A stretch of 5,362 bases of DNA, taken from the IMG/VR virus record IMGVR_UViG_2609459792_000011; one strand, given 5' to 3'. How positions within the stretch are numbered: the stretch's first letter is position 1; each line of letters starts with the position of its first letter. This document shows positions 3,422 to 5,362 of the stretch, one piece after another. A model generated the notes under the pieces. That model was given only the letters and a program-made list of their open reading frames with translations, had not been told where the DNA came from and ran no database searches. Origin of the DNA: a virus. Its lineage: Duplodnaviria; Heunggongvirae; Uroviricota; Caudoviricetes. Made by a program: the position numbers and the translations under genes.

Positions 3422-4762
3422 TTAACATTCCCCCATCACGTCGCATATTTAACAGATTGCCCTGCACCCGCTGATCAACCATCCCCATAAGTGCTTTTAT
3501 TGCCTGAGGGCCAATCTCTCCATTCTGGCCGTCATTTTGAATAGTGATTTGGTATACAGGGGCATAGGTAATATCTCCGCCTCCATTACCACTTTTACTA
3601 TTAATAGCTCTGACACCAAGAGAACCATCGGAAGTTCGTGTTAATGGCATAATGGCTTCCGGTCCAGCCTCACCAAAAACACCAGCCCCTTTTGCAAAAG
3701 CAAAAAATTGCGGGGAATCATAAATACCGTTCGAATACGTGCTCAATGACGGAGACTCATAAACACCGCCCTTTGCATTCGGAATAAATTTACTAATAGC
3801 ACTCCCGATAGTTCCTAAAATCCCCCCAGAAGAACTGTTACTAATGCTGTCGAAAATCCCAGTAATTGAAGCCTTTAATGCTATTCGACTAAGATCCGAA
3901 ATCACGGAAGTAGCGAAAGAACGAAAATTTGCTTTGCCTGTCGTGACAAAATCACCCAGCGCATCGGTCATCCCATCAAACATCTGAGTCGTGGTTGATT
4001 TTATCTGCTCACTGATATCCTTAGTGTCATCCAGCCAGTTATTGAATCCCTGGGAGGCACCACTAACCCAGTCTCCTGCCTGAATATCGAGCTGCTCGTT
4101 TTTCTGTCTGACAATTTCTTTTTCCCGTTCCAGAGCATCATTCAGAGCCTGCATTTTCTCTTGAAAAACATGATCTGACATTCCACGGGATTTATCTGCA
4201 TAGTCACGTTCAAGTTGCAGACGCTGATTGTTATATCCATGTTCAATCCGCAGTAATTCCTGCTGGCGTTGCTGATTTTTATCGCCAACCCCATAACCAG
4301 CAATCTGAATATCATACCCCTGCTGACGATTATCAATCGAAGCCTGCAATGAATCACGCCATGCTGTTATTTCGGCGGATTCCTTGATTAGCCTGTTATT
4401 TTTTTCAATCGCAACATTTTTCTCCATCAACGTGGTTATTTCTTCCCGGTGTAAGAGAAGCGATTTCTGATCCTGGGTTAATTTCGATGATGGTCGTGAC
4501 TCTAGGTCGGCAATCCGCTGACGCCACTTAACCAGTTCCTGTTCAGAGGAACTTAATTTAACGGTCAACTCAGCTTGTGAACTTAGTAACGCATTCTGTT
4601 GATTCAGATGATCAATCATTCGTTGGGCTGCATCATCAGAATAATCTTTCGCCTTTGGTTGCTTTGGATCTTTATAACGCTCATTTATTTGAGCGATAAG
4701 ATTATTATATTCTTCCTTTGAATACTGATTCTTTAGCTTTTCCAGTTTTGCAAGTTCACTAG
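3414..4762 (-). pseudogene. Tail tape-measure protein (gpH-like), C-terminal ~449 codons only; 5' part displaced by IS5-family insertion
   Basis: Long minus-strand ORF with coiled-coil-like Q/E/K/L-rich repeats (…QQRQQELLRIEHGYNNQRLQLERDYADKSRGMSDHVFQEKMQALNDALEREKEIVRQKNEQLD…) followed by a Gly-rich C-terminus (…SEQIKSTTTQMFDGMTDALGDFVTTGKANFRSFATSVISDLSRIALKASITGIFDSISNSSSGGILGTIGSAI … ITIQNDGQNGEIGPQAIKAL…RRDGGMLSG) that parallels the lambda gpH C-terminus as recalled. Located directly upstream of M. The first 23 codons of the track ORF (4832..4763) lie inside the IS terminus and are not phage sequence. Confidence 0.8.
4759..4762. repeat. Probable IS5 target-site duplication (CTAG, one copy visible)
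   Basis: CTAG directly abuts the IS terminal repeat; IS5 is known to insert at YTAR tetranucleotides and duplicate 4 bp. The second copy would lie beyond the window and cannot be seen. Confidence 0.5.
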
Positions 4763-4778
4763 GGAAGGTGCGAACAAG
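4763..4778. repeat. IS5-family terminal inverted repeat (left end)
   Basis: GGAAGGTGCGAACAAG read directly; matches the IS5 terminal repeat as I recall it. Confidence 0.8.
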
Positions 4779-4830
4779 TTCCTGATATGAGATCATCATA
4801 TTCATCCGGAGCGCATCCCAGAGGGACATC

Positions 4831-5362
4831 ATGAGCCATCAACTCACCTTCGCCGATAGTGAATTCAGCACTAAGCGCCGTCAGACCCGAAAAGAGATTT
4901 TCCTCTCCCGCATGGAGCAGATTCTGCCATGGCAGAATATGACCGCTGTCATCGAGCCGTTTTATCCCAAGGCGGGCAATGGCCGACGGCCCTATCCGCT
5001 GGAGACCATGCTGCGTATTCACTGCATGCAGCATTGGTACAACCTGAGCGACGGTGCCATGGAAGATGCCCTGTACGAAATCGCCTCCATGCGCCTGTTT
5101 GCCCGATTATCCCTGGATAGCGCCCTGCCGGATCGCACCACCATCATGAATTTCCGCCACCTGCTCGAGCAGCATCAACTGGCCCGTCAATTGTTCAAGA
5201 CCATCAATCGCTGGCTGGCCGAAGCAGGCGTCATGATGACCCAAGGCACTTTGGTGGATGCCACCATCATTGAGGCACCCAGCTCTACCAAGAACAAAGA
5301 GCAGCAACGCGATCCGGAGATGCATCAGACCAAGAAAGGCAATCAGTGGCACTTTGGCATGA
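4831..5362 (+). CDS. insH: IS5-family transposase (InsH/Ins5A-like), N-terminal 177 codons (3' partial)
   Basis: Not in the ORF track (no stop in window). ATG at 4831 translates [177 protein letters not shown]..., recognisable as the IS5 transposase. I cannot tell canonical IS5 from a close relative such as ISKpn26 by eye. Confidence 0.9.

Follow-up and report, generated by a model that had tools for sequence, protein, structure and literature searches.

Organization of the locus

The DNA described here (the window) is a stretch of 5362 bp that corresponds in full to contig JNRJ01000067.1 of the draft assembly GCA_000704625.1, from E. coli 2-427-07_S1_C3. It carries lambda-type tail genes on the minus strand and, abutting the tape-measure gene, one end of an insertion sequence (IS). 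The following features were recognized, each given with its coordinates, its strand, and the evidence behind it:

1-1031, minus: gpJ-like tail tip gene, 5' part, running off the left contig end (344 aa; FNIII-A_GpJ, synteny)
1103-1639, minus: gpI-like tail assembly protein, intact, 178 aa (Lambda_tail_I, 1.2e-24)
1636-2379, minus: gpK-like tail assembly peptidase (JAB plus NlpC/P60), intact (Prok-JAB, NLPC_P60)
2385-3083, minus: gpL-like minor tail protein, intact (Phage_tail_L, 7e-98)
3083-3421, minus: gpM-like minor tail protein, intact (Phage_min_tail, 1.2e-31)
3414-4762, minus: lambda-type tail tape-measure gene, 3' fragment encoding residues 630-1077 of 1077, with the stop (Pfam, TIGR01541, Salmonella phage SPF_0923)
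4759-4762, no strand: CTAG target, left copy of the expected 4-bp duplication (direct reading)
4763-5362, plus: left 600 nt of ISKpn26, IS5 family (600/600 nt identity to plasmid copies)
4763-4778, plus: left terminal inverted repeat GGAAGGTGCGAACAAG, 16 nt (outer end of complete copies)
4763-4832, minus: spurious 5' extension of the fragment's ORF, 23 codons plus the joint codon (ORF 3414-4832)
4831-5362, plus: transposase CDS, N-terminal 177 codons, without a stop and running past the contig end (DUF772, NF033581)

The gene order H-M-L-K-I-J, as read from these assignments, is that of the lambda-type tail module of a prophage. The tape-measure frame has its stop at 3414-3416 and stays open through 4762 on the minus strand, with 448 whole codons at 3417-4760 and neither internal stops nor frameshifts; its stop is overlapped by 8 nt by the start of the gpM-like gene. 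Its product was matched by Pfam TMP_4 (1.4e-24) and Tape_meas_lam_C (PF09718; 8.3e-27) and by NCBIfam TIGR01541 (221.6 bits, against a cut-off of 104.75). A preliminary description of the window had proposed an unbroken frame over just this interval, encoding some 449 C-terminal residues of a tape-measure protein, and both statements were borne out.

The fragment resembles the lambda gpH family in domain content (Tape_meas_lam_C, TIGR01541) and in its position upstream of homologues of gpM, L, K, I, and J within the H-M-L-K-I-J order. Members of the family are, however, encoded by a continuous CDS (about 1077 codons in close relatives), whereas the gene in the window is broken and codons 630-1077 alone adjoin the IS. 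Judged by its sequence, the interval 3414-4762 is thus a gene fragment or pseudogene and not a functional member of the gpH family. Beyond the joint the ORF remains open for another 23 codons of the IS and reaches an ATG at 4830-4832 on the minus strand. This chimeric ORF was deposited as KDY84819.1 (472 aa, "phage tail tape measure protein, lambda family"); the antisense strand of the left IS end supplies the first 23 residues of that protein and the true gene start is missing, and for curation purposes the entry is a truncated pseudogene fragment with an IS-derived beginning.

The right end of the contig lies 600 nt into ISKpn26, which places the right IS junction outside JNRJ01000067.1, presumably because the short-read assembly broke inside a multi-copy IS, as such assemblies usually do; the other half of the tape-measure gene would then have been left on another contig. 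The left end lies inside the gpJ-like tail tip gene (1-1031), of which the lambdoid prophages of 2-427-07_S1_C3 probably carry several copies, so that both ends would be repeat-induced assembly breaks.

The ISKpn26 element and its junction

Besides near-identity to the reference element, members of the IS5/ISKpn26 kind are recognized by three features, namely a 16-bp inverted repeat, GGAAGGTGCGAA(C/T)AAG, at each terminus, of which the window shows the left only; a transposase composed of an N-terminal DUF772 domain and a DDE catalytic domain, of which the window covers the N-terminal 177 aa, the DDE domain lying past the contig end; and a 4-bp target-site duplication of the CTAG/CTAA/TTAG type, of which the window shows one side. 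ISKpn26 itself is a 1196-bp IS5-family element that generated a CTAG direct repeat upon insertion into acrR (PMC8023600), and IS5 is reported to duplicate 4-bp targets such as CTAA or CTAG (PMC11677980).

The preliminary description had placed an IS5-family element at 4763-5362. The identity of these nucleotides to ISKpn26 (600 of 600) extends over the first half of the 1196-bp element and is shared with plasmid copies in Klebsiella, Escherichia, Citrobacter, and other Enterobacterales; the annotation under these matches reads "IS5-like element ISKpn26 family transposase", and within the IS5 family ISKpn26 belongs to the IS5 group. The N-terminal transposase segment matched Pfam DUF772 at 1.2e-21 and the NCBIfam model NF033581 (IS5 family transposase) with 207 bits, against a cut-off of 140, over profile positions 1-155 of 285; the gene is directed away from the visible 3' tape-measure fragment. 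These matches, like those of the tape-measure gene, are not due to chance.

On the plus strand the joint reads ...GCAAGTTCACTAG followed directly by GGAAGGTGCGAACAAGTTCCTGATATGAG..., with the boundary between 4762 and 4763. A complete copy on a Citrobacter plasmid (1196 bp) opens with the same GGAAGGTGCGAACAAG, so the outer end of the element coincides with position 4763 of the window, exactly where the boundary had been drawn; that copy closes with the imperfect inverted repeat CTTATTCGCACCTTCC and has TTAG on either side. In complete ISKpn26 copies GGAAGGTGCGAACAAG pairs at 15 of 16 positions with the right end GGAAGGTGCGAATAAG. The GC content changes across the joint, from 32-37% in the 200 nt before it to 52-59% within the IS.

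The window has the same 600 nt and terminal repeat as ISKpn26 on plasmids, and the same CTAG target as the insertions of ISKpn26 in K. pneumoniae acrR; acrR, however, is a resistance-related regulator, whereas the target here is a structural gene of an E. coli prophage, and half of the element is visible. IS5 in E. coli K-12, at nmpC and lomR, also interrupts a gene of a cryptic lambdoid prophage at a CTAA/CTAG site (PMC11677980), but the isoform of IS5, the prophage, and the gene all differ from those in the window.

Empty and occupied sites in related genomes

The unoccupied form of the target is provided by Salmonella phage SPF_0923, in which the tape-measure gene is uninterrupted (3234 nt, 1077 codons) and agrees over its 3' 1349 nt with window positions 3414-4762 at 99.6% identity. 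The empty site in this phage reads ...GCAAGTTCACTAG CTCTCTGCTGCTCCCGGG... and contains one CTAG; the window follows it base for base up to this CTAG and diverges only from 4763 onward, which places the insertion in the CTAG that spans codons 629/630. The CTAG at 4759-4762, which the preliminary description had taken for an IS5 target, is accordingly upheld in that role by the single copy at the empty site and by the target sites in the literature.

Among 5,426 complete E. coli genomes, the tape-measure gene region was found in 721 and was uninterrupted, nearly always on the chromosome, in 694 of these, so the intact state is the norm. Four complete genomes carry an IS5-family element in the same CTAG and in the orientation of the window, namely GDSC2239PM (NZ_CP136018), H1 (NZ_CP010160), 19KM1803 (NZ_CP151017), and ECSC054 (NZ_AP024112). 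In each of the four, the right end of the IS is followed by CTAG, then by CTCTCTGCTGCTCCC, which is the sequence after the lone CTAG of the intact SPF_0923 gene, and then by the 5' part of the gene, 1.9 kb in length; the CTAG is thus duplicated on either side of the IS, and the arrangement that the preliminary description had predicted for a simple insertion holds in these relatives. Their flanking prophage DNA is 96-97% identical to the window. Both halves of the gene are labeled tape-measure pseudogenes by PGAP in these genomes, and the 5' half would encode 629 native residues followed by about 36 residues contributed by the IS.

The gene, the CTAG, and the orientation are therefore common to the window and the four genomes, but the resident IS differs. 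Its identity to the first 600 nt in the window is 99.7-99.8% in three of them and 91.7% in ECSC054, where the element is IS5-like. Across these loci (L003 in GDSC2239PM, 7401-8595; L005, L006, and L007, 4396-5590) the elements at the shared site and orientation are 91-99% identical to one another and grade from ISKpn26 to IS5-like, some of them having the appearance of ISKpn26/IS5 mosaics. The four insertions may be independent, or they may descend from one old insertion modified by later IS-IS gene conversion, the sequences being compatible with either.

Separately, GDSC2239PM carries a second gene annotated "IS5 family transposase" (L003, 10770-11738), with the tape-measure gene start on one side of it and ydaY on the other; the second element lacks a GGAAGGTGCGAA end and so represents a different member of the IS5 family, and this prophage has been struck at least twice. 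Strain KV7 was considered as a further same-site case and set aside, as its query cover of at least 80% came from two joined pieces and its IS lies at a CTAA, 208 bp further on.

Further searches, directed at the strain itself or, in one collection, at the exact joint, gave no match. A literature search on the WGS and assembly accessions of 2-427-07_S1_C3 returned none, nor did an exact search with the 41-nt junction in the GTDB species-representative genomes, as expected for a collection in which each species is represented by a single genome. When the predicted N-terminal fragment, extended by its IS-encoded tail, was searched at the protein level, no match could be traced to GCA_000704625.1; the search retrieved truncated proteins from other samples, one with the same kind of junction (P0001) and one with the element in the opposite orientation (P0017).

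Insertion, rearrangement, or misassembly

The reading that best accounts for the whole locus, with a probability of roughly 0.85, is that ISKpn26 transposed into the CTAG at codons 629/630 and thereby split the tape-measure gene of the prophage. The 1.2-kb element would have moved into a CTAG of a 1077-codon gene in a lambda-like H-M-L-K-I-J prophage, and after a simple insertion the 5'-terminal 1.9 kb of this gene would be expected to follow TTATTCGCACCTTCCCTAGCTCTCTGCTGCTCCC.

The IS could instead mark a deletion or rearrangement in 2-427-07_S1_C3, through which the 5' part of the tape-measure gene, and perhaps more of the prophage, would be gone, either by recombination between two IS5-family copies or by IS-mediated adjacent deletion. 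Relatives offer instances of this kind. SCU-316 has an IS5-family element (L009, 3401-4595) at the same CTAG in the opposite orientation, the other end of which abuts another CTAG at the tail terminator gene, some 3.9 kb distant; the prophage DNA in between, which includes ydaY, the tube gene, and the 5' portion of the tape-measure gene, has been deleted, as either of these two processes would account for. In PK8277 an ISKpn26-type element elsewhere in the gene directly adjoins genes of the terminase region, and a deletion is suspected from the sequence of ECCHD184, where the 5' gene part is joined to an IS end and the left-junction searches listed no matching left junction. The right junction of the window, moreover, lies beyond the contig end. 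Against this, all four complete genomes that share both the junction and the orientation of the window are simple insertions with a duplicated CTAG, and, where complete genomes have the 4759 CTAG filled by an IS, seven out of eight keep the 5' part of the gene nearby. We therefore consider a deletion or rearrangement in this strain unlikely and a simple insertion likely, as far as the sequences of its relatives can indicate.

A further account would have IS reads misjoined to the prophage contig and the tape-measure gene really intact. This is indeed a short contig of a draft assembly, with a multi-copy repeat at its end; nevertheless, the joint coincides exactly with the edge of the IS terminal repeat, directly after CTAG, as in true transposition, and the identical junction is present in four independently assembled complete chromosomes. 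For these reasons an assembly chimera is very unlikely, to a degree that makes it nearly negligible.

Probable consequences for the prophage

In lambda, a continuous tape measure, gpH, is needed to start and to measure the polymerization of the tail tube on the tip complex. Under simple insertion of ISKpn26, the 5' part of the gene in 2-427-07_S1_C3 would encode 629 native residues and then run through IS-encoded codons (36 in relatives) to a stop, while the 3' part, visible in the window, has lost its start codon together with the promoter-proximal half and still encodes the Tape_meas_lam_C region. Since the tape measure must be one continuous chain, the prophage should not assemble tails, and it would fail to form infectious particles. 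By analogy with the biology of lambda gpH, then, it is probably defective for tail assembly, and the expectation of the preliminary description that tails could not be made is a reasonable one. The prophage could also have been defective before the insertion, or recombination with a second lambdoid prophage could rescue it.

A recent insertion is probable, given that the visible half of the IS matches circulating plasmid copies without a difference and that neither the tape-measure fragment nor the four tail genes downstream of it show decay. A known IS occupies a known kind of target, and the same insertion is already annotated in RefSeq genomes; the locus is a case of ordinary prophage decay and has little significance beyond annotation.

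Recurrent insertion at scarce CTAG sites

The tetranucleotide CTAG occurs twice in the 3234-nt tape-measure gene, compared with about 12 occurrences expected from base composition, while CTAA occurs 8 times and TTAG 10 times; the two CTAGs, at 4759-4762 and 4502-4505, are also the only ones in the whole window. The first of these is filled by IS5-family elements in eight complete genomes, four per orientation, by elements that range from ISKpn26 to IS5-like (91.7-99.8% identity to the 600 nt in the window). The occurrence of both orientations together with this range of identities implies at least two independent events. The second was struck by an IS5-family element in the Logan contig SRR33442445_6908 (P0006/L012). 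The 4759 site lies within the most AT-rich stretch of the visible gene, and IS5 insertion is biased toward AT-rich regions, among other local DNA features (PMC11677980). The preference of IS5 for CTAG or CTAA, combined with the scarcity of CTAG, is enough to explain why insertions recur at these sites.

It can be asked whether selection has contributed. The insertion might have been kept for the benefit of the host, either through selection against virions or because the IS drives expression of the 3' fragment and the tail-tip genes; eight complete genomes have the same tetranucleotide filled, by different IS variants and in either orientation, and an ORF that has its ATG within the IS continues without a stop into the gene fragment. 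These observations are offset by the targeting of CTAG or CTAA by IS5, the only two CTAGs of the gene having both been struck, and by the rarity of the insertion, which is present in about 1% of carriers (8 of 721, with 694 uninterrupted); in addition, nothing points to an outward promoter, and the 23 extra codons are read antisense to the IS end. Retention for host benefit is hence very improbable. A broader proposal, that the two CTAGs of this widespread prophage gene are recurrently selected "kill switches" by which hosts domesticate the prophage, abolishing virions while keeping the cargo, would, if true, account for both the two orientations and the several IS5 variants, and we hold it to be improbable as well, if not quite to the same extent. 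Taken as a consequence of target preference, the locus illustrates cleanly, on a small scale, that IS5-family insertions are channeled to a few recurring positions in E. coli because CTAG is rare there.

Two truncated proteins of 717 aa that end in ...ADLES (P0007 and P0018) were evaluated as products of an IS at the second CTAG and rejected. Their native residues continue for two codons past the CTAG, so a nonsense mutation (CGA to TGA) fits better, leaving P0006/L012 as the only real IS junction at that site. The truncated allele, which ends ...IADLES at about window position 4494-4496, was seen on 28 contigs and is likeliest, from its sequence, to be this CGA-to-TGA nonsense change; if so, the tape-measure gene would also have been inactivated by point mutation in other strains.
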